NCBI RefSeq assembly: GCF_054482525.1
Contig: NZ_CM137006.1
Length of the DNA stretch: 64,000 bases
Direction: 5' to 3' (one strand)
Of the stretch, positions 41,379-54,710 are shown piece by piece. How positions within the stretch are numbered: the first letter of the stretch is position 1; each line of letters begins with the position of its first letter. The notes beneath the pieces were generated by a model, which saw nothing but the letters and a program-made list of their open reading frames with translations, searched no databases and had not been told where the DNA came from. Made by a program: the position numbers and the translations under genes.

Positions 41379-42062
41379 ATGACTGAATGGCTTAATGCAC
41401 ATTTTGGTGCAGACGCAGCTACCTATCTTAGCTTATTAGTCGGCGTACTGGCACTGTTTGGTATTGGGGGCGGTGTTACATATAGAATCAGACAGCAAAA
41501 CAACATAAAACAGAAGGCAAAGAAAACCGAGGGTGATGTGAACCAGGCCGGGCGGGATATTAATCAGACCACCAACGTTTACCACACATCCAATGAATCT
41601 ACTGAGGACCCTGTAAAAAAAAAGCAAGATGAACATGATCTGAAGATAATCGACCAGATCCTTGAATTGCTGCCTTATGAGGATACTACTCAATGGGTTG
41701 AGCAGAGCTACCTGAGCGGTATACGGCAAGATGTTTGCTTAAACATTGAAAAAGCTGAAAAATTTAGCGGTGAAAAGTATCGGTTATTCAATACTGAAGT
41801 GAATGGTGCGAAAGACGCTTTTTTGGACGCTATGACCGCATACGTAGATAGTACGCTACCATTTATGAGTGTTGATTACCCGAACAGAAAGCCAGTGATG
41901 CTAAGCCTTCCCCATGACTGGAAGAGTAAGAGTGTTGAATCGGAGGCAAACTTCCGCTTTCATCAGCAAAATGTGCGTGAAACATCGGGGGGGATGATTG
42001 CGCGCTATGAGGATTTTGTCAGGACATTTAAGGCTCATGGATTCATAAGCGATAAACTGTAA
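41379..42062 (+). CDS. Hypothetical N-terminally membrane-anchored protein (227 aa)
   Basis: ATG preceded by AAGGA and a TATAAT -10 box at 41343-41348; one predicted TM helix (YLSLLVGVLALFGIGGGV); own terminator downstream; no recognised domain. Confidence 0.6.
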   Translation: MTEWLNAHFGADAATYLSLLVGVLALFGIGGGVTYRIRQQNNIKQKAKKTEGDVNQAGRDINQTTNVYHTSNESTEDPVKKKQDEHDLKIIDQILELLPYEDTTQWVEQSYLSGIRQDVCLNIEKAEKFSGEKYRLFNTEVNGAKDAFLDAMTAYVDSTLPFMSVDYPNRKPVMLSLPHDWKSKSVESEANFRFHQQNVRETSGGMIARYEDFVRTFKAHGFISDKL

Positions 42063-42141
42063 AGGCGCAGTGGGTCAGCGAACACCGCAACGACAGAACC
42101 GCGTAAGCGGTAAAATCAGCTTGTTAACTGGCGAGTTTATA

Positions 42142-42166
42142 GCCGTCCCTCCGGGGCGGCTTTTTT
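42142..42166 (+). terminator. Rho-independent terminator after gene 41379-42062 (GCCGTCCCtccGGGGCGGC + TTTTTT)
   Basis: Hairpin followed by a T-run 80 bp after the stop codon. Confidence 0.6.
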
Positions 42167-42416
42167 ATGACTATAATCGACAGAATCACCTGAACGTCCA
42201 GGTGGGTTTCCCTGACAGGACGTCAAGGAATGTTCGCTTTGTGCCAGGAGCGGACGTTGCCAGCATTGAGTTTTCAGTTTTCAAAGGTATATCTTTAGAT
42301 TTAGTTCACTTAGAATGAGCGTGTTAAAGTTTTCGGTTATGTGAGTATATTGAACATAACAAATAAACAATAATTTTTGTATTCCATTTAAGATATAAAA
42401 AAGAGGGATTTGAGTT

Positions 42417-43202
42417 ATGTACGATTATAGTTTTTTACTTACTCCATCTACAGGATTTGTTAAAGGATTATGTGGAGTTTGGTCGAATGATTTCTCTATA
42501 AATGATGATTCTGACTCTGATTTAGGGCAAACAGATATTCATTTACTTTCATCTCCTCATTTGAATATCATATCCGACCCAAATGAATTGGCTTCCAAGT
42601 TAAAAGGTTTGTTGATGCTCATGAACGGCGCACTTAGCGTTCTTTATGGTTTTGAAAGATATCAATCTTTTGGTCCTCTTTCTATTTCTGGAAGTGAAGG
42701 CATTAATTACTCGGAAATATGCGGCTTTAAATCAATGGATGTAACTCAGGTAAATCCCTTTAATTTCCATGACATACAGCAACCACACCCTCGCGCTGAT
42801 AATTTTTCACGATTAATTAATTTATCATCTAAACATGAATCCTTACGTGTTGTTTTAGGTATGTGTGCCTTAGGTTATGATTGGGTTAATCTTTATCGTT
42901 TGTGGGAAACAATTAGAGAATATGTATATGATAAATATGTGAAAGGTATACTAAATTTTCCCGACGCTTATAAAGGCAAGAAATATCAGAGAGATAAAGT
43001 AATTAGCATGGCTTTTAATATTGATGAAAAGGAAATCAGCAGATTCACGGGCACTGCTAATAGCTTTGAACTGTTAGGGTATCTTGCGAGACATGGAAAG
43101 GGAAGTTCCGGAGGGATATTAAAAAATCCGATGTCAAGAGTTGACGCAAGCAATTTCGTACACAAAGCAACTTACAAATATTGTAAGTTATTTTTGATGT
43201 AA
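42417..43202 (+). CDS. Hypothetical protein (261 aa), strongly AT-rich gene of likely foreign origin
   Basis: Clean ORF preceded by AAGAGGGA RBS; codon usage and GC content far below the flanking DNA; no recognised domain. Confidence 0.6.
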   Translation: MYDYSFLLTPSTGFVKGLCGVWSNDFSINDDSDSDLGQTDIHLLSSPHLNIISDPNELASKLKGLLMLMNGALSVLYGFERYQSFGPLSISGSEGINYSEICGFKSMDVTQVNPFNFHDIQQPHPRADNFSRLINLSSKHESLRVVLGMCALGYDWVNLYRLWETIREYVYDKYVKGILNFPDAYKGKKYQRDKVISMAFNIDEKEISRFTGTANSFELLGYLARHGKGSSGGILKNPMSRVDASNFVHKATYKYCKLFLM

Positions 43203-43363
43203 GTAAAAAGTTGAAGCTATAATACTCAAAGTATCGAAAACTACGTTCGTCGTGCACTCGAAAACAATATGCTTATTGTGTCTGCACTAATTACTCAAGG
43301 TCCGAGAAAAATGGCGAAGCTCATCTTTTTCAGGCTTCGCCAACTTGAGTTATTGGTTAAAAT

Positions 43364-44116
43364 TCATTTAGGAATAATAGAATGCAATTCGTGACTCACC
43401 TGGATTTCATAGTGTTTCAATAGTTCTCCGATGTTAATTCCTACTACCTTACGAACTGCGCCGAGGGAGAAGTTAAGCTCCTCAATGCCCGGCCGATCTG
43501 GCGTTGAATTCATATAGTGTCGGCACGCACGGACAATTGACTCGACGATCAACGATAGCGGAGACTCAGGTGCAATCTCGGAGCGAATCGCCGTAAGAGA
43601 GAGTCGGAGCTCCTTCAAAGAATCCGAGACTCGTGCTGGATCCTCTTGAGCATATGGCAGATAAAGAGAACTCTTGTCTTCCAATAAATGGATCACCCGC
43701 AGAGCAATTTTCTCGTCTGGGCGATGCGATAGAAATTGAAACATTAGCCTCTTTCCTCCCTCCAAGCACTCCTTCATTAGTGATTCGTGGTCACGTTTCC
43801 ATTTTCGCAAATACTCGGCGGGGTAGCCCATACCGCCATTCTTATCAACTAAATCAGCACAAGCTCCGCACAACCATATAGCATTTTTTATGCTCTTCCG
43901 CTCTGTTTCTGACTGAGACATGTCATAGCGCGGTCCGCCAGGGCTCGCCGCGCAGATATGCGCCGCCTCACCCGTCTTGATAGAAAGATTTTCCGCCAAT
44001 TGATCCGGGCCGATTGTTACCCTATGACAAGAGGGATTGCTACAAATATATGTAGCGCGCTCTGCTACCTTACCTACAACGCTTGGAGGAAAGTTGTGCC
44101 TATTTGTCTTGGTCAT
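43364..44116 (-). CDS. Hypothetical protein with N-terminal HNH-nuclease-like motif (250 aa)
   Basis: CSNPSCH ... EAAHICAASPGGPRY ... NAIWLCGACADLVD resembles the Cys-pair/His/Asn arrangement of HNH endonucleases; C-terminal domain unrecognised. Confidence 0.55.
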   Translation of the reverse strand: MTKTNRHNFPPSVVGKVAERATYICSNPSCHRVTIGPDQLAENLSIKTGEAAHICAASPGGPRYDMSQSETERKSIKNAIWLCGACADLVDKNGGMGYPAEYLRKWKRDHESLMKECLEGGKRLMFQFLSHRPDEKIALRVIHLLEDKSSLYLPYAQEDPARVSDSLKELRLSLTAIRSEIAPESPLSLIVESIVRACRHYMNSTPDRPGIEELNFSLGAVRKVVGINIGELLKHYEIQVSHELHSIIPK

Positions 44117-45089
44117 AAAAGTTATGCTTCTTTGTTTTTTTCATCTATGTGGGGAGAATAAAATCATACTTTTTATATCTGATCCTAGGTCTGACCAGCA
44201 ACCTATTGATCAAAAAACCAAGATATTAGCTAAAAAAAATCAGCATACTTGAGACCAAGCTCAATGTCCGCTCCTCGCTCAAAGCAGACCATTCGCTCAG
44301 TTAACGCATCAGTGTCGTGCTAAAAGTAGACGTGGTTAACAACAATGTGAGTTAATCAACGGAGAGCAGGTCAACTCTAACCTGTATCAAAAAAACAAAT
44401 GTGTCACAAAGATGCCGCATGCCTTAATTTGAGTATAATTGAGACGGAAGTAGACGGTTTATGGCTAAATATTGTTGATATATAGCTATTTGAAGAGTTG
44501 TAGCGCAAGTGTATAGCCCAAACTAATAACGCTACGCCCCTTACCTTTGACGCCTCTTATCAAAGAGCGGCGATGATGCACAGCCCGCACGAGGCAATAT
44601 TCGCACAAGAATCAGGTTCAGAAATAACCTGATCTGGCATGGTGGGGAGAGTATCACTGAGCAGGCTTTCGGTAAAATGCGGCGGGATGAGGTCGGCGTG
44701 GGTTGCAGCAGTACAATGTCGCCCGCAGAGGGTAAGCCACAGCGCGGGATCCTCGGTTTCTATCAGGGATTCGACGAAGTGGGCGCAGTTGTCGACCAAG
44801 GCGGTGAAATCCATAGTGACATTATAAGGAAACGAACAATAGATCGAGTAAATCGCAGTCAGGGACAAGGATTGTAGTCATAGAGAAGTCTCCTGTAACG
44901 GTTTTCAGGAAGCTAATCCCGACGCCTGATTTTGCAGGCGCGGAAGGAGAAGATACTGCGGCCATTAATCCGCCACAAGGCATTTACGTGCATAAATCGC
45001 GCAGTCAAATCCGACTCCCACTGTAGTTCTTGAACCTGATACCACATTTAGCTAATTTAGCTAACTTATCTATTATACCAGTGGTTGCC

Positions 45090-45335
45090 ATGAATATGAA
45101 TGAAGACGAGATTTATCGCCATATCCGGCAGGCACTTTCCAGTGCGCCTCGTAACCAGTACACCGTCGAGCTGCACCTGCAAATGATTAAATATGCCGAC
45201 AAACTGGAACACATTACGGCAAAAGCCTTTTGCGAAGGCACTGGTCTGAACCAGAGCCTCGGTACCGAATTCAGCAAAATGCGTAACTTAACCCATCGGT
45301 TAAAGGCCGCCGGTCTGAATACCGATCTGCTGTAA
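45090..45335 (+). CDS. Small hypothetical protein immediately upstream of hsdM (about 81 aa; start uncertain)
   Basis: ORF 45030-45335 ending 40 bp before hsdM; MNMNEDEIYRHIRQALSSAPRNQYTVELHLQMIKYADKLEHITAKAF... Confidence 0.35.
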   Translation: MNMNEDEIYRHIRQALSSAPRNQYTVELHLQMIKYADKLEHITAKAFCEGTGLNQSLGTEFSKMRNLTHRLKAAGLNTDLL

Positions 45336-45374
45336 CCGACTTACGGCACATTATCGCGCAAAACGAGATATTTA

Positions 45375-47813
45375 ATGGCTATCAAAAAAACCGAACTCTA
45401 TTCTTCCCTGTGGGCAAGCTGCGACGAACTGCGTGGCGGGATGGACGCCAGCCAGTACAAAGACTATGTACTGACCCTGCTGTTTATGAAGTACGTTTCC
45501 GATAAGTATAAAGGCGATCCTTACGGGATGATCGTGATACCCAAAGGAGCCAGCTTTGACGATATGGTTGCGCTGAAAAATGACAAAGAGATCGGCGACA
45601 AAATCAACAAAATCATCCACAAGCTGGCGGAAGAGAACGGCCTGAAGGGCGTCATCGACGAAGCCGACTTTAACGACGAAGATAAGCTCGGCAAAGGCAA
45701 GGAAATGATTGACCGCCTGAGCAAGCTTGTCGGTATCTTTGAAGGGTTAAATCTCTCCAGCAACCGGGCCGAAGGCGACGATCTGCTGGGCGATGCCTAT
45801 GAATATCTGATGCGTCACTTCGCAACCGAATCCGGTAAGAGTAAAGGGCAGTTTTACACTCCAGCGGAGGTGTCACGTATTCTGGCGAAGGTGATTGGTA
45901 TTACTCCCGATACTCCGCAAGATGCAACGGTTTATGACCCAACCTGTGGCTCTGGTTCGCTGCTGTTGAAAGTGAATGATGAAGCCCGGCGCGGACTGTC
46001 GATTTTCGGCCAGGAGATGGATAACGCTACCAGTGCGCTGGCGCGGATGAACATGATTCTGCATAACAATGCCACCGCGAAAATCTGGCAGGGCAATACG
46101 CTGAGCGATCCGCAGTGGAAAGAGGCGAACGGCAAACTGAAAGCCTTCGATTTTGCCGTGGCGAACCCGCCTTTTTCCAATAAAAACTGGACCAACGGGC
46201 TGACGCCGAAAAAAGATCCGTTTGAACGCTTCGGCTGGGGTATTCCGCCGGAAAAAAACGGCGATTATGCTTTTTTGTTGCATATCATTAAAAGCCTGAA
46301 AAGTACCGGCAAAGGCGCGGTGATCCTGCCCCACGGCGTACTGTTTCGCGGTAACGCCGAAGCGAATATCCGTGAAAATCTAATCAAGCAGGGCTATATC
46401 AAAGGCGTTATTGGTTTGCCAGCCAACCTGTTTTACGGCACCGGCATCCCGGCGTGCATCATTGTGATTGATAAAGAGCACGCCCACAGCCGCAAAGGCA
46501 TTTTTATGATCGACGCCAGCCGGGGCTTTATCAAAGATGGCAACAAGAACCGCCTGCGTAGCCGAGATATTCACCGCATTGTGGACGTGTTCAACCATCA
46601 GCGAACGGTACCTGGCTACAGCCGGATGGTGCCCTCCAGCGAGATCGCCGGAAATGATTACAACCTGAATATTCCTCGCTATATCGAGAGCGGCGAGCCG
46701 GAAGATTTACACGATCTGACCGCGCACTTACAGGGCGGTATTCCGGCACGCGATGTGGATGCTTTGCAAGATTACTGGCGGGTATTCCCTGCCCTGCGCA
46801 ACGTGCTGTTTGCTGACGACCGTCCCGGTTACTGTCGGGCGCAGGTGAACGCGCAACAGGTGAAACCGACCATTCTGGCGCATCAGGAGTTTAAGGATTT
46901 TGCCACCCGCAGCCTGCTACCGTTTAAAGCGTGGGTGAAAGAGGCAAGTCTGGAAGAGATTCGCAAAGGTGATAAACCCAAAGCGCTAATCCACGATATC
47001 AGCGAAATGCTATTGGCGCAGTACGCCAACAGTGAGTTGCTGAACAAATACAGCGTGTACCAGATCCTGATGGATTACTGGACTGATGTCATGCAAGACG
47101 ATGTGTATGCGATTATGCAGGATGGCTGGCAAGCCGCCGCGCAAATCCGCGAGCTTCAGCCGGTGAAAGGCAAAGATGGCAAAAACATCTGGAAAGAAAC
47201 GCACGATTTCGAGTTTACCAAACGGCGCTACAAGGCCGATGTGCTGCCCCGTTCGCTGGTGGAAATTCGCTGTTTCCCGGAACTGCTGGATGCGCTGAAC
47301 CGCGCGCAGGAGCGCAGTGAAGAAGCCAGTCGTCAGCTAGTGGAATTCATCGAGGAGCAGGCAGGTGAAGAGGATCTGCTGGCCGAGGCGAAGAACGATA
47401 AAGATAAGGTGACGCAAAAGCTGGTGAATGCCCGTCTAGCACAGTTAAAGAAAACCACTGCCGGCCCAGATGAGCTGGCAGTGCTGAACCGCTGCCTGGC
47501 GCTAATTAAGGCCGAAGCCAGTGCGAAAAAAGCGCTGAAAGCCGCACAAGAAGCGCTGGATCGGGCGGTGTTTAAACATTATCCCACGCTGGATGAAGCA
47601 GCGATTAAAACGCTGGTAGTGCAGGATAAGTGGCTGGCAACGTTGCAGGCAGGGATCAAGGCGGAGATTGAGCGTATTACCCAGCAACTGGCGTCGCGCG
47701 TAAAGGAGCTGGAAGAGCGTTATGCTGAACCGTTGCTAGCGCTTGAAGCCTCCGTTGAGGCGTTGAGCGAGAAAGTGGCCGAGCATTTGCGGGCGATGGG
47801 GCTGGAGTGGTGA
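45375..47813 (+). CDS. hsdM: Type I restriction-modification methyltransferase subunit HsdM, unusually long (812 aa) with a C-terminal coiled-coil-like extension
   Basis: AdoMet motif DPTCGSGSLL and catalytic NPPF (VANPPFSNKNW) in the first ~470 aa; last ~300 aa are Ala/Glu/Lys-rich helical. Confidence 0.88.
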   Translation: MAIKKTELYSSLWASCDELRGGMDASQYKDYVLTLLFMKYVSDKYKGDPYGMIVIPKGASFDDMVALKNDKEIGDKINKIIHKLAEENGLKGVIDEADFNDEDKLGKGKEMIDRLSKLVGIFEGLNLSSNRAEGDDLLGDAYEYLMRHFATESGKSKGQFYTPAEVSRILAKVIGITPDTPQDATVYDPTCGSGSLLLKVNDEARRGLSIFGQEMDNATSALARMNMILHNNATAKIWQGNTLSDPQWKEANGKLKAFDFAVANPPFSNKNWTNGLTPKKDPFERFGWGIPPEKNGDYAFLLHIIKSLKSTGKGAVILPHGVLFRGNAEANIRENLIKQGYIKGVIGLPANLFYGTGIPACIIVIDKEHAHSRKGIFMIDASRGFIKDGNKNRLRSRDIHRIVDVFNHQRTVPGYSRMVPSSEIAGNDYNLNIPRYIESGEPEDLHDLTAHLQGGIPARDVDALQDYWRVFPALRNVLFADDRPGYCRAQVNAQQVKPTILAHQEFKDFATRSLLPFKAWVKEASLEEIRKGDKPKALIHDISEMLLAQYANSELLNKYSVYQILMDYWTDVMQDDVYAIMQDGWQAAAQIRELQPVKGKDGKNIWKETHDFEFTKRRYKADVLPRSLVEIRCFPELLDALNRAQERSEEASRQLVEFIEEQAGEEDLLAEAKNDKDKVTQKLVNARLAQLKKTTAGPDELAVLNRCLALIKAEASAKKALKAAQEALDRAVFKHYPTLDEAAIKTLVVQDKWLATLQAGIKAEIERITQQLASRVKELEERYAEPLLALEASVEALSEKVAEHLRAMGLEW

Positions 47814-49147
47814 TGGTGGATTTAATGGTGAATGAGCAACGGTCGAGTACGGCGGGGAAAGATGTGCCTGCGGGGTATAAACTGACTGAGGTGGGCGTGA
47901 TTCCTGAGGATTGGGATTGCGTACCATTTGGTAATCTGTTTAAAACAAACACAAAGAAAAAAAAAGTCAGCGATTATGAGCTAGTTTCATTTATTGGGAT
48001 GCAAGATGTTAGTGAAGATGCACAATTAAAAAATAATACTCAACTTCCTTTTAAAGAAGTTAAAAGTGGTTTTACTTACTTTGAAAAAGGGGATGTTTTA
48101 TTAGCTAAAATAACCCCTTGTTTTGAAAATGGAAAAGGATGTCATACCGCTGATTTACCTACTAATGTAGGTTTTGGGAGTACGGAATTTCATGTATTAA
48201 GGGAAAATGAAGACTCCGATTCTCGCTTCATCTATTTTTGGACAACTGATAAAAAATTCAGAGCATCACTGGAATCTGAAATGGTGGGAAGTGCGGGACA
48301 CCGTCGTGTGCCGCTAGTTGCTATAGAAAAATATTTGATTCCATGTCCCCCAAATTTGCAAGAGCAAAGTGCTATTGCTGATTCATTATCTGATATTAAT
48401 AATTTTATTCTAGCTCTAGAAAAGCTTATCGTTAAAAAACAAGCCATTAAAACCGCTACTATGCAGCGACTACTGACTGGTAAAACCCGTTTGCCACAGT
48501 TTGCGTTGCGCAAAGATGGCTCTGCTAAGGGATATAAAAAGAGCGAGTTGGGGGAGATTCCTGAAGATTGGAATTGTATTAATCTTGGTGAGCTAGGTAA
48601 TTGCATTATTGGGTTAACTTACAAACCTGAAGATACATCTGATTATGGTACATTGGTATTACGCTCATCCAACATTCAAAATAATCACTTAGCTTATGAT
48701 GATAACGTCTTCGTCAGCATAGAACCACCTGAGCGCACAATTGTGAAAGAAGGTGATATCTTGGTATGTGTAAGAAATGGCAGTCGCCAACTTATTGGCA
48801 AATGCGCATTAATTGACAAAAATGCGCAGGGCTCAGCATTCGGTGCATTTATGTCAGTATTCCGAACTGATATATATGGATTTACATTTCACCAATTCCA
48901 GTCTGATATTATTCAAAAGCAAATCGCTGAAGTTATGGGTGCCACTATCAATCAGATAACTAACAAAGATATGTTGGGCTTTAAAATCCCATTACCTGAA
49001 AATACAGAAGAACAAGCCGCCATCGCCGCCATCCTCTCCGATATGGACAAGGAAATCCAGATCCTGCAACAGCGTCTGGACAAAACCCGCCAGCTTAAGC
49101 AAGGGATGATGCAGGAACTGTTAACCGGGAAAATCCGCTTAATATAG
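47813..49147 (+). CDS. hsdS: Type I restriction-modification specificity subunit HsdS (two AT-rich target-recognition domains)
   Basis: Conserved central and C-terminal repeats (…LLTGKTRLPQF… and …QELLTGKIRLI) flanking two variable AT-rich domains; ATG overlaps the hsdM stop (ATGA). Confidence 0.85.
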   Translation: MVDLMVNEQRSSTAGKDVPAGYKLTEVGVIPEDWDCVPFGNLFKTNTKKKKVSDYELVSFIGMQDVSEDAQLKNNTQLPFKEVKSGFTYFEKGDVLLAKITPCFENGKGCHTADLPTNVGFGSTEFHVLRENEDSDSRFIYFWTTDKKFRASLESEMVGSAGHRRVPLVAIEKYLIPCPPNLQEQSAIADSLSDINNFILALEKLIVKKQAIKTATMQRLLTGKTRLPQFALRKDGSAKGYKKSELGEIPEDWNCINLGELGNCIIGLTYKPEDTSDYGTLVLRSSNIQNNHLAYDDNVFVSIEPPERTIVKEGDILVCVRNGSRQLIGKCALIDKNAQGSAFGAFMSVFRTDIYGFTFHQFQSDIIQKQIAEVMGATINQITNKDMLGFKIPLPENTEEQAAIAAILSDMDKEIQILQQRLDKTRQLKQGMMQELLTGKIRLI

Positions 49148-49159
49148 AAGGGAAAGCAC

Positions 49160-49816
49160 ATGGCTTATGATTACAGCGCCAGCCTCAACCCGCAAAAAGC
49201 TCTGATCTGGCGTATCGTCCATCGGGACAATATCCCGTGGATTCTGGATAACGGGCTGCACTGCGGCAACAGTCTGGTGCAGGCGGAAAACTGGATCAAT
49301 ATCGGCAACCCGGAGCTGATCGGCAAGCGTGCCGGGCATCCGGTACCTGTCGGAACGGGCGGGACACTGCATGACTATGTGCCGTTTTATTTTACCCCCT
49401 TCTCGCCAATGCTGATGAACATCCACAGCGGGCGCGGCGGCATTAAGCAACGCCCCAATGAGGAGATCGTTATTCTGGTCAGCAACTTGCGAAACGTGGC
49501 AGCACACGACGTACCCTTCGTGTTTACCGACAGCCATGCTTACTATAACTGGACCAACTACTACACCAGTCTGGATAGTCTGGACCAGATCGACTGGCCC
49601 ATTTTGCAGGCACGGGACTTTCGCCGCGATCCAGACGATCCGGCTAAATTTGAACGCTATCAGGCAGAGGCGCTAATCTGGCAACACTGCCCGATCTCTC
49701 TGCTGGATGGGATAATTTGTTACAGCGAAGAGGTCAGGTTACAATTAGAACAATGGCTGTTTCAGCGTAATCTAACAATGTCCGTTCACACACGGGCTGG
49801 ATGGTACTTCTCATGA
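49160..49816 (+). CDS. darT: DarT-like DNA ADP-ribosyltransferase toxin (DUF4433, 218 aa)
   Basis: [38 protein letters not shown]... matches E. coli DarT as I recall it; followed by a macrodomain gene with overlapping stop/start. Confidence 0.8.
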
Positions 49817-50880
49817 TCACATATACACAAGGCAATTTACTGGACGCACCGGTGGAAGCTCTGGTGAATACGGTTAATACCGTCGGTGTCATGGGGAAAG
49901 GCATCGCGTTGATGTTTAAAGAGCGCTTCCCCGAAAATATGAAAGTCTATGCCCTCGCCTGCAAACAAAAGCAGGTGATCACCGGCAAAATGTTCATTAC
50001 CGAAACCGGGGAACTGATGGGACCGCGCTGGATTGTTAATTTTCCGACCAAACAGCACTGGCGCGCTGATTCCCGCATGGAGTGGATTGAAGATGGCTTG
50101 CAGGACTTACGCCGCTTTTTGATTGAAGAGAACGTGCAGTCCATCGCCATTCCACCACTGGGCGCAGGCAACGGTGGTTTGAACTGGCCGGACGTTCGGG
50201 CGCAGATTGAATCTGCCCTTGGCGACCTTCAGGACGTTGATATCCTGATTTACCAACCGACTGAAAAATACCAGAACGTTGCCAAAAGCACTGGCGTAAA
50301 AAAGCTCACTCCCGCCAGAGCCGCCATCGCTGAACTGGTGCGTCGCTACTGGGTATTGGGGATGGAGTGCAGCCTACTGGAAATCCAGAAACTGGCCTGG
50401 CTGTTACAACGCGCCATTGAGCAGCATCAACAGGACGATATCCTCAAACTGCGGTTTGAAGCTCACTATTATGGCCCCTATGCGCCCAATCTGAACCATC
50501 TGCTTAATGCGCTGGACGGCACCTATCTTAAAGCCGAGAAACGCATCCCGGACAGCCAACCGCTGGATGTGATCTGGTTTAACGATCAGAAAAAAGAACA
50601 CGTTAATGCGTATCTGAACAACGAAGCCAGAGAGTGGCTACCTGCGCTGGAGCAGGTCAGCCAGTTAATTGACGGCTTTGAATCGCCGTTTGGTCTGGAG
50701 TTGCTGGCAACCGTAGACTGGTTGCTGAGCCGTGGCGAATGTCAACCAACGCTGGATTCCGTTAAGGAAGGGCTGCACCAGTGGCCTGCGGGCGAACGCT
50801 GGGCCAGCCGTAAGTTGAGGCTGTTTGATAATAATAATCTGCAATTTGCCATTAACCGCGTAATGGAGTTCCATTGCTGA
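49813..50880 (+). CDS. darG: DarG-like macrodomain antitoxin (about 355 aa; alternative start at 49801)
   Basis: N-terminal macrodomain [39 protein letters not shown]; ATG overlaps the darT stop (ATGA). Confidence 0.8.
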
Positions 50881-50898: not shown

Positions 50899-53800
50899 TT
50901 GAGTACCGTGGGCCAGCGCGAACGCGCCACACAGCAGCGTCTGATTCAGTTTTTTGTTGAAGATTTAGGTTACCGCCATCTGAGTCACCGCACCGGGTAC
51001 ACCGGGAACAGCAACATCGACACTAATATACTGAGCGCGTGGCTAAAACGGCGCGGCGTTAATGATACGTTGATCACCCGGGCGTTGCGGCAACTGGATT
51101 CCGCCGCCGCTCTGGGCGAAGGCAAAAAACTCTATTACGCCAATAAAGAGGTCTATCGCCTGCTGCGTTACGGCGTGAAAGACAAAGAAGGCGCAGGCGA
51201 GCAGAACCAAACCGTGTGGCTGATTGACTGGGCCAACCCACAAGCCAATGATTTCGCCATCGCCGATGAGGTGACGGTCAAAGGCGAGTACTGCAAGCGC
51301 CCGGATCTGGTGCTGTACGTTAACGGCATTGCGCTGGGCGTGATTGAACTTAAGCGTTCGTCAGTGCACGTCAGCGAAGGCATCCGGCAGAATCTCGATA
51401 ATCAAAAGAAAACCTTTATCCGCGATTTCTTCACCACTATGCAGTTAGTGATGGCGGGCAACGATACGCAGGGCCTGCGCTACGGCACCATCGAAACCCC
51501 GGAAAAATACTATCTGGAGTGGAAAGAAGATAATCCAGGCGACTATACACATAAACTCGACTTTCATTTAAGTCGTCTGTGTAGCAAATCCAGGCTGTTG
51601 GATATCGTCCATAATTACATTGCCTTTGATGTCGGGGTGAAAAAACTCTGCCGCCATAATCAGTTCTTCGGCGTCGAGGCGGCTAAACAACATATTGCCC
51701 GTCGTGAAGGCGGTATTATCTGGCACACACAGGGATCGGGTAAAAGCCTGACGATGGTCTGGCTGGCGAAGTGGATCCGTGAAAATGTGCCAAACTCCCG
51801 CGTGTTGATTGTGACTGACCGCACCGAACTGGATGAACAGATCGAAAGCGTGTTTATGGGCGTGAATGAAGATATTTATCGCACCTCCAGCGGCAACGAT
51901 CTTATCGCAACGCTCAATCATCCTAACCCGTGGCTCATTTGCTCGCTGGTGCATAAATTTGGTCGTCGCAGCGAAGCTGAAGACAATGCGGCTACCGACG
52001 CCTTTATCACCGAATTACAGCAGTCCCTGACGAAAACATTCCGCGCCAAAGGCGATCTGTTTGTTTTTGTGGACGAGTGCCACCGCACACAATCCGGCAA
52101 GCTGCATAACGCCATGACTGCCATTCTGCCGGACGCCCTGTTTATCGGTTTTACCGGCACACCGCTGATGAAGAAAGATAAGAAGAAGTCGGTTGAGGTG
52201 TTCGGCCCTTATATCCATACCTATAAATTTGATGAAGCGGTGGCCGACGGTGTGGTGCTGGATCTGCGCTACGAGGCACGCGATATTGACCAGTATCTGA
52301 CATCAGAGAAAAAGGTCGATGACTGGTTTGAAGCCAAGACTCGCGGTTTGTCGAATTTAGCCAGGACCCAGCTTAAGCAAAAGTGGGGATCAATGCAGAA
52401 GCTGCTCTCCAGCAAGTCGCGGCTGGAGCAGATCGTTAACGACATTTTGCTGGATATGGATACCCGTCCACGCCTGATGGACGGGCGCGGCAACGCCATG
52501 CTGGTATGCAGCAGTATCTATCAAGCCTGCAAGGTTTACGAGATGTTCAGCCAGACCGAGCTGGCAGGAAAAGTAGCGATTGTGACCAGCTATCGCCCCG
52601 ATGCCGCCAGCATCAAAGGCGAAGAAACGGGCGAAGGGTTAACGGAGAAACTCTCTAAACACGCCACCTATCGTAAAATGTTGGCTGACTATTTTGAACA
52701 AAGTGAAGAGAAGGCCGCCGCACGCATTACCGAGTTCGAGCGGGAAATGAAACAGCGTTTTATTGAAGAGCCGGGGCAAATGCGCCTGCTTATCGTGGTG
52801 GATAAGCTGCTGACTGGCTTTGACGCGCCGTCCGCCACCTATCTCTACATTGATAAAACCATGACCGACCATACGCTGTTTCAGGCGATTTGTCGGGTGA
52901 ACCGGCTGGACGGTGAGGATAAAGAGTATGGCTATATTATCGATTATAAAGATCTGTTCCGTTCGCTGGATAAAGCGATTACCGATTACACCACGGGCGC
53001 GTTTGATGATTACGATCGGGACGATGTGGCCGGGTTGCTGAAAGACAGGCTGGAGCAGGCGCAACTGGATCTCGACAGCGCGCTGGAGATGGTTCGCAGC
53101 TTATGTGAACCCGTCAAAACCCCGCGCAGCCTGCTGGACTATCAGCACTATTTTTGCGGTGAATCAGGAGAGAATCAGACTTCGTTAAACGAAAAAGAGG
53201 CGCTGCGCCTGACATTTTACCAGTGCGTCGCCCGTCTGCTACGCGCTTATGCCAGCATCGCCAATGAAATGCCGGAAGCAGGCTACACTGCCGAAGAGGT
53301 AGAGAGCATTCGCGCCGAAGTCGCTGAATTCGAAAAACTGCGCTATGAGATTAAGCTGACCAGCGGCGATCTTCTGGATATGAAGCGCTTTGAACCCGCT
53401 ATGCGTCATTTACTGGATATGTATGTTCGCGCCGATGGTAGCGAAGTGCTGATGGATTTTGAAGAGTTAAGTCTGATTGAACTGATTGTCGAGAAAGGCT
53501 TGGCGGCGACCGTCGCCCTGCCGGATGATATCCGTAATAATCAGGATGCGATGGCGGAAACCATCGAAAACAACGTGCGCAAAACCATCGTGGATGAAAA
53601 CCCGGTTAACCCAAAATACTATGGACGCATGTCGCAGCTGCTGGATGAACTGATTACCCTTCGCCGACAAAATGCGCTCAATTATCAGCAGTATCTGGAA
53701 CGTATCCGCGATTTGTGTAAACAGGTCATCCGCCCGGAGCAAACCGCCGGAGCGTGCTACCCTGCCACCATGGATACACAAGCAAAGCGCGCCTTCTATG

Positions 53801-53994
53801 ATAACTTCGGCCACGACGAGGTACTGGCGACCCGCATAGATACGACGATTCGCTATACCAAAAGGGCAGAGTGGATTGGCGATCGTTTTAAAGAACGGGA
53901 AATTGCCAACGCATTACGTGAAGAGACCGCCAGCTATAATATTGATATTGATGAGGTGATAGCGCTTGCCCGTCAGCAGAAGGAATATCACTGA
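50899..53994 (+). CDS. hsdR: Type I restriction enzyme endonuclease/helicase subunit HsdR (1031 aa, TTG start after AAGGAG)
   Basis: Helicase motif I HTQGSGKSLTMV, motif II LFVFVDECHRTQSG; size typical of HsdR. Confidence 0.88.
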   Translation: MSTVGQRERATQQRLIQFFVEDLGYRHLSHRTGYTGNSNIDTNILSAWLKRRGVNDTLITRALRQLDSAAALGEGKKLYYANKEVYRLLRYGVKDKEGAGEQNQTVWLIDWANPQANDFAIADEVTVKGEYCKRPDLVLYVNGIALGVIELKRSSVHVSEGIRQNLDNQKKTFIRDFFTTMQLVMAGNDTQGLRYGTIETPEKYYLEWKEDNPGDYTHKLDFHLSRLCSKSRLLDIVHNYIAFDVGVKKLCRHNQFFGVEAAKQHIARREGGIIWHTQGSGKSLTMVWLAKWIRENVPNSRVLIVTDRTELDEQIESVFMGVNEDIYRTSSGNDLIATLNHPNPWLICSLVHKFGRRSEAEDNAATDAFITELQQSLTKTFRAKGDLFVFVDECHRTQSGKLHNAMTAILPDALFIGFTGTPLMKKDKKKSVEVFGPYIHTYKFDEAVADGVVLDLRYEARDIDQYLTSEKKVDDWFEAKTRGLSNLARTQLKQKWGSMQKLLSSKSRLEQIVNDILLDMDTRPRLMDGRGNAMLVCSSIYQACKVYEMFSQTELAGKVAIVTSYRPDAASIKGEETGEGLTEKLSKHATYRKMLADYFEQSEEKAAARITEFEREMKQRFIEEPGQMRLLIVVDKLLTGFDAPSATYLYIDKTMTDHTLFQAICRVNRLDGEDKEYGYIIDYKDLFRSLDKAITDYTTGAFDDYDRDDVAGLLKDRLEQAQLDLDSALEMVRSLCEPVKTPRSLLDYQHYFCGESGENQTSLNEKEALRLTFYQCVARLLRAYASIANEMPEAGYTAEEVESIRAEVAEFEKLRYEIKLTSGDLLDMKRFEPAMRHLLDMYVRADGSEVLMDFEELSLIELIVEKGLAATVALPDDIRNNQDAMAETIENNVRKTIVDENPVNPKYYGRMSQLLDELITLRRQNALNYQQYLERIRDLCKQVIRPEQTAGACYPATMDTQAKRAFYDNFGHDEVLATRIDTTIRYTKRAEWIGDRFKEREIANALREETASYNIDIDEVIALARQQKEYH

Positions 53995-54710
53995 TGCCAA
54001 TCATGCAAATAGGCTCGTTACACTTGCTGGTCAACCGTAAGGCGATTAAGAATCTGCATATCAGCGTGCTGCCGCCTGATGGCAAAGTACGCGTTTCAGC
54101 GCCGGAACATATGACGGAGACGGCGATTCGTATGGCGGTTGCTTCACGCTTTCGCTGGATCAGAAAACAGCAGCAGGATTTCGCCAGACAGCCTCGTCAA
54201 TCAGAGAGGGAAATGGTCAGCGGAGAGTGCCACTATCTTTGGGGCCGAAGATATCGCCTACTTGTGATTGAGCGTCACGGGCGTCACGAAGTAAAAGTTG
54301 CAGGAAATAATAAGCTCCAGCTTTATGTTCAACCAGGAACCCGTGATGAAAATAAGGCATTGGCGTTAAGTGAATTTTATCGACATGAACTAAAACAGCA
54401 GGTGGCTAAGCTTCTACCTGAATGGCAGGACCGAATCGGTGTTCCCCTAACATTCTGGGGCATCAAAAAGATGAAAACCTTTTGGGGCACCTGTAACACT
54501 ACAACAAAACGAATCTGGCTCAATCTGGAGCTAATTAAGAAGCCGCCGGAGTGTCTGGAGTATATTCTGGTGCATGAACTGGTTCATCTTCTGGAACGTC
54601 ACCATAATGCTCGCTTCCGGTTGCATATGGATCGGTTTATTCCTGACTGGCGTGAGCGTCGGGATTTGTTAAATAATATGCCGTTAGCGTTTGAGGCATG
54701 GGAGTATTGA
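53994..54710 (+). CDS. Zinc metallopeptidase-like protein (YgjP/DUF45/M48-like, HExxH), start overlapping the hsdR stop
   Basis: HELVHLLERHH motif; ATG at 53994 overlaps the hsdR TGA. Confidence 0.7.
   Translation: MPIMQIGSLHLLVNRKAIKNLHISVLPPDGKVRVSAPEHMTETAIRMAVASRFRWIRKQQQDFARQPRQSEREMVSGECHYLWGRRYRLLVIERHGRHEVKVAGNNKLQLYVQPGTRDENKALALSEFYRHELKQQVAKLLPEWQDRIGVPLTFWGIKKMKTFWGTCNTTTKRIWLNLELIKKPPECLEYILVHELVHLLERHHNARFRLHMDRFIPDWRERRDLLNNMPLAFEAWEY

Follow-up and report, generated by a model that had tools for sequence, protein, structure and literature searches.

A predicted RptR repressor gene and a decayed mobile-element gene upstream of a type I restriction-modification operon in Escherichia coli

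The type I restriction-modification (RM) operon in the stretch of DNA analysed here, which is 64,000 nucleotides long and is referred to as the window, very probably begins with rptR, a small plus-strand gene whose product would repress its own operon through an operator array; the divergent minus-strand open reading frame (ORF) beside it is very probably a relic, and not a gene. The RptR repressor is already published (Zhang et al. 2025, NAR gkaf645), and the window locus adds a second natural allele to that known system. The dimer structure, the DNA binding, the repression and the infection-induced expression have been demonstrated for the near-identical locus of EPEC, and by identity the same would hold for the window allele.

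Organization of the locus

A sequence-only reading of this region had noted two small divergent ORFs at 44560-45335, in the presumptive control region of the RM operon, and the ORF listing confirms that both are present. The minus-strand ORF had been described as a Cys-rich frame of 84-102 residues, and indeed 7 Cys are counted in its 102 residues; the plus-strand ORF, said to encode about 81 residues and to end 40 bp before hsdM, encodes 81 residues when read from the ATG at 45090, and the gap to hsdM is 39 nt. The starts of the two ORFs lie about 230-280 bp apart. The small ORFs and the operon genes are as follows.

44560-44868, minus strand: small ORF, 102 residues from a TTG or 84 residues from the ATG at 44814.
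45096..45335, plus strand: rptR by sequence, 79 residues from the ATG at 45096; PGAP gives the same coordinates (WP_001431807.1).
45375..47813, plus strand: hsdM, methyltransferase of the type I RM system and second in the operon (Pfam HsdM_N and N6_Mtase; PGAP).
47813..49147, plus strand: hsdS, specificity subunit (transferred from the PGAP annotation of L001, an identical locus whose coordinates are offset by 29299; ORF).
49160..49816, plus strand: darT, single-stranded-DNA ADP-ribosyltransferase toxin (Pfam DarT, E 3e-53; NCBIfam toxin_DarT, 262 bits).
49813..50880, plus strand: darG, antitoxin with a macro domain (NCBIfam antitoxin_DarG, 451 bits; WP_000634203.1).
50899..53994, plus strand: hsdR, restriction subunit (Pfam HSDR_N, SWI2_SNF2 and T1R_D3-like).
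53994..54710, plus strand: M48/YgjP-like metallopeptidase, last gene of the island (Pfam YgjP-like, E 1.4e-61; WP_001122107.1).

The same gene order, rptR-hsdM-hsdS-darT-darG-hsdR-M48, is found in EPEC E2348/69, where the seven-ORF island is known as RptR-RMS-DarTG-M48 (RRDM) and defends against several phages (PMC12255303; NAR gkaf645). The two islands share the accessions of both DarG and the M48 protein, but differ in the context that flanks them. Strains EC_J_9 and NCTC86 are among those that carry the island of the window. In the window, rptR is the first gene of the defence operon, with co-oriented defence genes close behind, as it is in most of the 80 loci of the survey described below. 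A scan of 44100-45500 detected no terminator-like site, and hence none between rptR and hsdM, which is consistent with one transcript from the rptR promoter; the seven genes from rptR to the M48 gene would be co-transcribed.

ORFs as long as the two small ones are common by chance in this DNA, which holds 85 ORFs of at least 30 residues in 10 kb (ORF listing) and many antisense ORFs of at least 110 residues, and each of the two was therefore judged on other evidence. NCBIfam and PADLOC gave no match for either of them, nor for the M48 gene. For rptR, in-frame alternative starts exist at ATG 45090 (81 residues) and TTG 45030 (101 residues). Neither candidate ATG, at 45090 or at 45096, is preceded by a canonical Shine-Dalgarno sequence, and strain L090 has ATA at the position of the second.

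The plus-strand ORF and the RptR family

The product of the plus-strand ORF belongs, as judged from its sequence, to the published family of RptR repressors, and the ORF would be rptR. A prediction of a helix-turn-helix (HTH) and a search for conserved homologues had been proposed as checks, and both speak for this ORF, to an extent far beyond chance. The product matches the Pfam profile HTH_73 (PF24718) with 98.6 bits against a cut-off of 27, over 70 of 71 profile positions and with an E-value of 1.9e-28. A search of 5.8 billion proteins yielded 688 clusters of homologues; the matches listed are nearly all of 79 residues and 72-99% identical. The hosts include Dickeya, Pantoea, Vibrio, Aeromonas, Shewanella, Methylomonas and Nitrosomonas, among others, and across the Gammaproteobacteria the homologues are about 75% identical. 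Clustering at 50% leaves only 110 representatives, i.e., the family is compact and highly constrained.

EPEC RptR is a 9-kDa homodimeric repressor of four helices, whose crystal structure has been determined at 1.3 Å (PDB 9R2Z) and for which no close structural homologue in the PDB was reported (PMC12255303). The window protein is identical to chain A of this entry in 76 of 79 residues (96%), and the three differences, namely N2D, N52S and H67R, are conservative. Read against the published residue lists, all of the residues assigned to DNA contact (T57-K61) are unchanged in the window protein, as are those assigned to dimerisation, namely V24, E25, L65, R68, L69, A72 and L74 (PMC12255303). In an alignment of 22 homologues from different orders, 38 columns are invariant; these include E25, T57, E58, F59, S60, K61, L65, L69, A72 and L74, and R68 is nearly so.

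PGAP labels WP_001431807.1 only as an 'HTH-like domain-containing protein', and a literature search under the name or accession of HTH_73 returned nothing relevant. The RptR paper was reached through the operator motif TTAGCTAA, in a full-text search of the literature.

The promoter and the operator array

The promoter elements and the predicted operator lie upstream of rptR, at the following positions.

45030..45035, plus strand: TTGAAC, the -35 box of the rptR/RRDM promoter; EPEC has the same box in the same context.
45050..45058, plus strand: -10 element AGCTAATTT, 14 bp past the -35 box and the same as the functional 5' -10 box of EPEC; single copy in the window.
45047..45073, plus strand: RptR operator array, predicted from the match to repeats DR1-3, consisting of the 9-bp repeats TTTAGCTAA, TTTAGCTAA and CTTATCTAT.
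45049-45054, 45058-45063 and 45067-45072, plus strand: 6-bp operator sites TAGCTA, TAGCTA and TATCTA, in a 9-bp register.

In EPEC, the target of RptR consists of three 9-bp direct repeats TTTAGCTAA (DR1-3) that overlap the -10 box, and binding in EMSA is cooperative, with a Kd of about 185 nM and a Hill coefficient of 3.4 (PMC12255303). The minimal site is the palindrome TAGCTA, in which position 5 may be G or T and position 6 may be C or A, and TATCTA is among the four site variants predicted to be bound (PMC12255303). According to an AlphaFold 3 model, which EMSA and mutants support, a splayed pair of RptR helices sits in one major groove on the 6-bp palindromes (PMC12255303); S60G is one of the RptR mutants in the published experiments (PMC12255303). 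In the window, sites of the form TA[G/T][C/A]TA recur in the 9-bp register, over the operon's own -10 element, at 45049, 45058 and 45067. Within the 64 kb, this is the only place that has pairs of sites in this register, and the 2 matches compare with an expectation of 0.01. We initially took these palindromes for a possible new operator, a proposal that was dropped since the RptR paper already describes them.

Aligned with the promoter of EPEC E2348/69, the window promoter, with the same -35 box, -10 element and 9-bp repeat operator, matches base for base, save for one 9-bp repeat that is missing. That is, the EPEC array comprises three perfect copies of TTTAGCTAA followed by CTTATCCAT, whereas that of the window comprises two perfect copies of TTTAGCTAA followed by CTTATCTAT, whose site is TATCTA. 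The window type was found in about 238 records, versus 4 (O127:H6) for the exact EPEC type; the window carries the common E. coli promoter allele. Because two repeats suffice for full repression in EPEC (PMC12255303), we infer that the window array, with its two perfect repeats and TATCTA, would be repressed like the three-repeat EPEC array.

A consensus promoter scan of the locus missed the experimentally defined rptR promoter, a miss that reflects the limits of the scan and does not speak against a promoter; in EPEC, promoter activity is lost when the -35 box is scrambled (PMC12255303).

Proposed regulation and relation to other regulators

The model that we propose for the window is that of the EPEC system. 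The rptR product would be a homodimeric repressor of 79 residues and four helices, several dimers of which would bind cooperatively to the palindromes TAGCTA, TAGCTA and TATCTA, spaced by 9 bp. There would be a single promoter, with the array overlapping its -10 element about 50-65 bp upstream of the gene, and RptR bound there would hold down the transcription of rptR itself and of hsdM-hsdS-darT-darG-hsdR-M48. Phage infection would then relieve this repression of the defence operon. In EPEC, RptR supplied in trans lowers the activity of a promoter/GFP reporter by about 10-fold, its overexpression abolishes phage defence, and hsdM mRNA rises more than 15-fold upon infection (PMC12255303).

It might be argued that RptR acts as the controller proteins of type II RM systems do, i.e., as an activator or timer that delays restriction in a new host, and not as a repressor that responds to phage. 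Controller (C) proteins carry an Xre-type HTH, bind C-boxes of about 35 bp, and both activate and repress. Like RptR, those of PvuII and AhdI (C.PvuII and C.AhdI) are small dimeric DNA-binding proteins that head an RM operon and are autoregulated through repeated operators overlapping their own promoter. In addition, rptR heads an operon that includes a toxin as well as a restriction enzyme, the island is mobile and mosaic in context, and the analogy with controller proteins was drawn by the authors of the RptR paper themselves (PMC12255303). Nevertheless, we consider this reading unlikely. Repression is the only effect observed, both in the reporter and in the loss of defence on overexpression (PMC12255303). 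Window RptR has no Xre/HTH_3 domain in Pfam, where no Xre/cI-type HTH was found and HTH_73 is the sole match at E <= 0.1, and its site is a 6-bp palindrome rather than a C-box. Moreover, rptR precedes hsdM and not the nuclease, hsdR being the sixth gene, which leaves no delay of restriction behind methylation.

The repressors BrxR/CapW (WYL) and CapH/CapP resemble RptR in a different way: they too lie directly upstream of diverse defence systems, and expression is induced under phage or DNA-damage stress. However, they carry sensor domains (WYL-WCX) or have a partner protease, whereas RptR is a single domain of 79 residues with no sensor. RptR works somewhat like the C proteins and like BrxR/CapW or CapH, yet it is not a member of either group.

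The minus-strand ORF as a relic of a P4-like element

On the minus strand, the homology points to two decayed features.

44590..44881, minus strand: putative pseudogene relic of a 153-156-residue gene of P4-like elements (DNA homology and tblastn).
44880..44954, minus strand: putative relic of an isrK / C4-target (a1b1) RNA leader (Rfam, sub-threshold).

The minus-strand ORF is best read as no gene at all: what has decayed here is the 5' part of the 153-156-residue gene, and a frame happens to be open across its remains. Window positions 44587-44904 are 78% identical in DNA to the 5' two-thirds of the gene for WP_000201175.1, a hypothetical protein of 156 residues. In other E. coli, this gene lies in a tRNA-Thr island, adjoining a call for an 'ash family protein', and borders variable defence cargo, namely a type I RM system in L008 and a reverse transcriptase with AbiE in L009. 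The intact family of 153-156 residues comprises 608 clusters, from E. coli, Salmonella, Klebsiella, Enterobacter, Dickeya and Pectobacterium.

The window copy has no uninterrupted frame of about 153-156 codons. By tblastn, frame -3 holds residues 1-15 (44881-44837), frame -1 holds residues 16-96 (44835-44608), and residues 97-156 are missing; the homology ends near 44590, i.e., the last 60 or so residues are gone. The ancestral start is the ATG at 44881 (MTTILVPDCDLLDLL), in frame -3, and a 1-bp insertion puts residues 16-96 into frame -1, which is that of the minus-strand ORF. The ORF is the longest open stretch across the relic. Within it, deletions of 11 bp and 4 bp scramble residues 53-65 of the relic, and a deletion of 1 bp moves LCEYCL into a third frame. 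The Cys-rich C-terminal tail of the ORF, with 3 of its 7 Cys, is the product of this last frameshift.

The adjoining RNA leader has decayed as well. Rfam scores for 44880-44954 are 42.3 bits for isrK (gathering threshold 50) and 40.9 bits for c4-a1b1 (gathering threshold 46.7), and no match to the C4 RNA was obtained in the scan of this region; that is, these sub-threshold hits are all that precedes the relic on its strand, instead of complete isrK and C4 RNA genes. L008 and L009 have both isrK and C4 at the corresponding place, with scores above threshold (68-72 bits). In Dickeya oryzae (L010) and Pectobacterium (L012), the two are intact (73-82 bits), divergent from rptR and adjoining it, and L010 also keeps an intact ORF of 153 residues, 59% identical to the E. 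coli protein, together with a Ner-like HTH gene. The 153-156-residue gene, the isrK leader and the C4 antisense RNA would together form an immunity module of the P4-like type, the transcription of which diverges from that of rptR. Compared with this P4-like/Gifsy-type module (Rfam RF01394, RF01695 and RF03163), the window region, at 78% identity, keeps a recognisable isrK/a1b1 leader but has the C4/ash segment deleted and the ORF frameshifted and truncated; unlike the module of Dickeya, it has no downstream Ner-like HTH gene. The window lineage apparently lost the C4/ash segment by a deletion between the direct repeats AAACCGTTACAGG. Assignment of the minus-strand ORF to the Ash family was also considered and rejected, as there is no match to Pfam Phage_ASH and the ash/C4 segment is deleted.

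Could the minus-strand ORF nonetheless encode a genuine small Cys-rich protein, e.g., a metal-binding modulator of the RM system, transcribed divergently from rptR? The frame is open over 84-102 codons and lies downstream of the isrK-like leader; the minus strand also carries a promoter-like site, and PGAP annotates the frame in some genomes (hypothetical protein WP_154670580.1). We nevertheless regard this as very improbable, given that the ORF coincides with the out-of-frame and truncated middle of a longer conserved gene, and that its Cys tail stems from a 1-bp deletion. Neither Pfam nor NCBIfam gave a match for it. When conservation is assessed for the 84-102-residue product itself, the ORF fails: the related clusters number only 9, are confined to E. 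coli and have inconsistent lengths (60-131 residues). Strain CUVET21-37 (L090) carries a 1-bp insertion and a 16-bp deletion in the ORF, while the O157:H7 strain L091 and EPEC carry a 4-bp insertion, and in the latter two the ATG at 44814 is ATA; the indels re-frame the ORF in L090 and L091, in neither of which it is called by PGAP. As to its placement in the control region of the type I RM operon, the homology of the relic assigns it instead to the neighbouring mobile element, and the minus-strand feature is, on this evidence, where the backbone of a P4-like element has decayed at its edge.

That the plus-strand ORF might be a spurious or non-functional leftover, with the operon driven by its own promoter before hsdM, is scarcely credible: rptR does lack a strong Shine-Dalgarno sequence, and 36 E. 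coli genomes in which it is internally deleted and the operon is otherwise intact indicate that it is dispensable in some lineages, but its product shows extreme conservation, with 38 columns invariant among the 22 aligned homologues, the EPEC protein, 96% identical to it, has been both crystallised and characterised functionally, the scan detected no promoter-like or terminator-like site in the spacer of only 39 bp between rptR and hsdM, and published experiments have already refuted this reading for the RptR family (PMC12255303).

The suggestion that small genes in this region could encode regulators is upheld for the plus strand, where the ORF corresponds to RptR (PMC12255303; PDB 9R2Z), and abandoned for the minus strand, which holds a relic. 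Conversely, the caution that either ORF could be spurious was justified for the minus strand, given the frameshifts, and unnecessary for the plus strand, i.e., for rptR.

A survey of rptR loci

One genome was scanned per species, which gave 80 loci; the operator count includes this survey plus four added loci and the window (n=84). When the 130 nt upstream of the 84 homologues were aligned, almost all of them showed an array of the 8-mers TTAGCTAA, TTATATAA or TTATCTAA, spaced strictly in the 9-bp register; the array follows a -35 box of the form TTGnnn and lies 25-60 nt ahead of the start codon. At least two operator sites lie within 100 bp upstream of rptR in 75 of the 84 loci, and a pair in the 9-bp register in 73. 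By comparison, no locus has two or more sites in the control region from -500 to -400, and 5.5% of shuffled upstream sequences reach that number. This conservation of the operator independently reproduces Figure 8 of PMC12255303.

In the 80-locus survey, the downstream gene is co-oriented with rptR and usually 20-90 bp away from it. A type I RM system follows at 38 of the 80 loci, with hsdM first at 35 and hsdR first at 3, as also in V. cholerae; the RptR paper gives 54 of 117 (PMC12255303). Other systems follow at 34 of the 80, and 28 of these 34 loci keep at least two operator sites. The systems identified among them are the following.

ABC-type ATPase of 875-890 residues, like PADLOC Ppl/PDC-M49A: 15 loci; a Schlafen/AlbA_2 gene is next in both loci scanned.
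Gabija GajA: 3 loci; GajB was confirmed in the one locus scanned.
Protein of 126 residues, then an Hsp70-like protein: 3 loci; an IetA-like ATPase is next in the one locus examined.
Type III methyltransferase: 2 loci; a restriction enzyme is next in the locus examined.
Methyl-directed type II nuclease: 2 loci.
Lamassu LmuA/LmuB: 1 locus.
GmrSD-like protein and methyltransferase: 1 locus.
Methyltransferase and HerA: 1 locus.

The RptR paper frames RptR as a regulator of RM systems and refers to the non-RM modules behind rptR as 'of unknown function'; its main text names neither Lamassu nor type III RM, and mentions Gabija only in a different context (PMC12255303). The survey of the non-RM cargo is an incremental extension of the known system, and not a new one.

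Upstream of rptR, the neighbours are heterogeneous across 72 loci, and include PolA, TnsA, integrases, RexA and HipA, among others. V. cholerae, like a few other species, has rptR as the next gene behind the core intA-tfp-intB-srap of SE elements, which are strand-biased circularizing integrative elements (PMC10214605). This position in Vibrio, directly after intA-tfp-intB-srap, would suit an accessory of the recombination machinery of mobile elements, a role that we rejected for the plus-strand ORF on account of the heterogeneous upstream neighbours. Because these neighbours vary, the constant unit is the promoter/operator, then rptR, then a defence operon. We find it somewhat more plausible than otherwise that rptR and its operator promoter form a portable regulatory cassette, not tied to any one defence system, which would silence whichever defence operon follows and would move with mobile elements, e.g., the SE elements, as the foremost of their cargo genes.

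Implications

As regards annotation, the ORF before hsdM should be named rptR and described as the repressor gene of the RRDM defence island; a flag as a pseudogene relic is due for the divergent 'hypothetical protein'.

Natural rptR-deleted islands, in which the gene has lost 53 bp, exist in O157:H7.

Beyond annotation, the remaining interest of this locus is threefold, namely in the shorter, common operator allele, in these rptR-deleted O157:H7 islands, and in the many non-RM defence systems that RptR heads. The shorter array of the common E. coli form, with one perfect repeat fewer, bears on how sensitive repression is to the number of repeats. The rptR-deleted islands, along with the non-RM cargo, provide cheap entry points into how infection lifts the repression by RptR. 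Lastly, the survey suggests that RptR is a general repressor of defence operons, rather than one specific to RM systems.

Operator and start codon of rptR

Strains differ in how many perfect 9-bp operator repeats they carry at the rptR promoter. EPEC E2348/69 has three, and the records with this type number only 4, each from the O127:H6 lineage. The operator in the window (45047-45073) consists of two perfect 9-bp repeats and a TATCTA variant, and this type is found in about 238 records. Outside the promoter, single copies of the repeat occur at two positions:

44226-44234, minus strand, one copy of TTTAGCTAA
48101-48109, minus strand, one copy of TTTAGCTAA, inside hsdS

Because lone sites are bound poorly by RptR, according to published data (PMC12255303), these two isolated copies are probably chance occurrences.

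The start of rptR comprises two in-frame ATG codons, 6 nt apart (45090-45098), and neither is preceded by a clear Shine-Dalgarno sequence in the window. Both 79 and 81 residues are candidate lengths for E. coli RptR. In strain CUVET21-37 the second ATG is replaced by ATA, i.e., the upstream ATG alone remains; the PGAP coding sequence for rptR in that genome still begins at the ATA position.

Variable cargo around rptR and related modules

The RRDM island is separated from the GTPase gene by a block that varies among islands that are otherwise identical:

41379-44116, three unannotated genes
43364-44116, minus strand, the one of these genes that encodes a 250-aa product

The N-terminal part of the 250-aa product gives an HNH-like match to the PADLOC PDC-M68A and CBASS endonuclease effector models (E 6.6e-24), and the gene may be a further defense gene in a variable slot.

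In the E. coli tRNA-Thr island (loci L008 and L009), a module composed of isrK, C4, "ash" and a 156-aa ORF flanks a variable slot with strain-dependent defense cargo, namely a type I RM system in one strain, and a DRT-like reverse transcriptase with AbiE in another. The "ash family protein" that PGAP annotates in this island overlaps the C4 antisense RNA gene, so what was called as a coding sequence may in fact be a gene for an RNA.

In Vibrio cholerae and a few other species, rptR comes directly behind the SE-element core genes intA-tfp-intB-srap. What follows rptR is a type I RM system with hsdR first (V. cholerae loci L002-L004; loci L030, L035 and L089) or unrelated cargo (V. cholerae L005). 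The orthologous RRDM island of Pectobacterium sp. PL152 appears heavily decayed: hsdM, hsdS, darG and hsdR are broken up into multiple ORF fragments, but the rptR gene and operator are still intact.

A natural deletion within rptR

Among 5,426 complete E. coli genomes, 36 have an internal deletion in rptR; most of the 36 are O157:H7. In E. coli O157:H7 17B6-2 it maps as follows:

about 45241-45309 (window-equivalent), internal rptR deletion

The DNA-recognition helix of RptR is thereby lost, and PGAP annotates the gene as a pseudogene. In the one genome checked, hsdM, hsdS, darT, darG, hsdR and the M48 gene are all intact by annotation. The RRDM island at this O157:H7 locus is naturally rptR-null, a notable finding given that plasmid cloning of the EPEC RRDM operon without rptR failed (PMC12255303).
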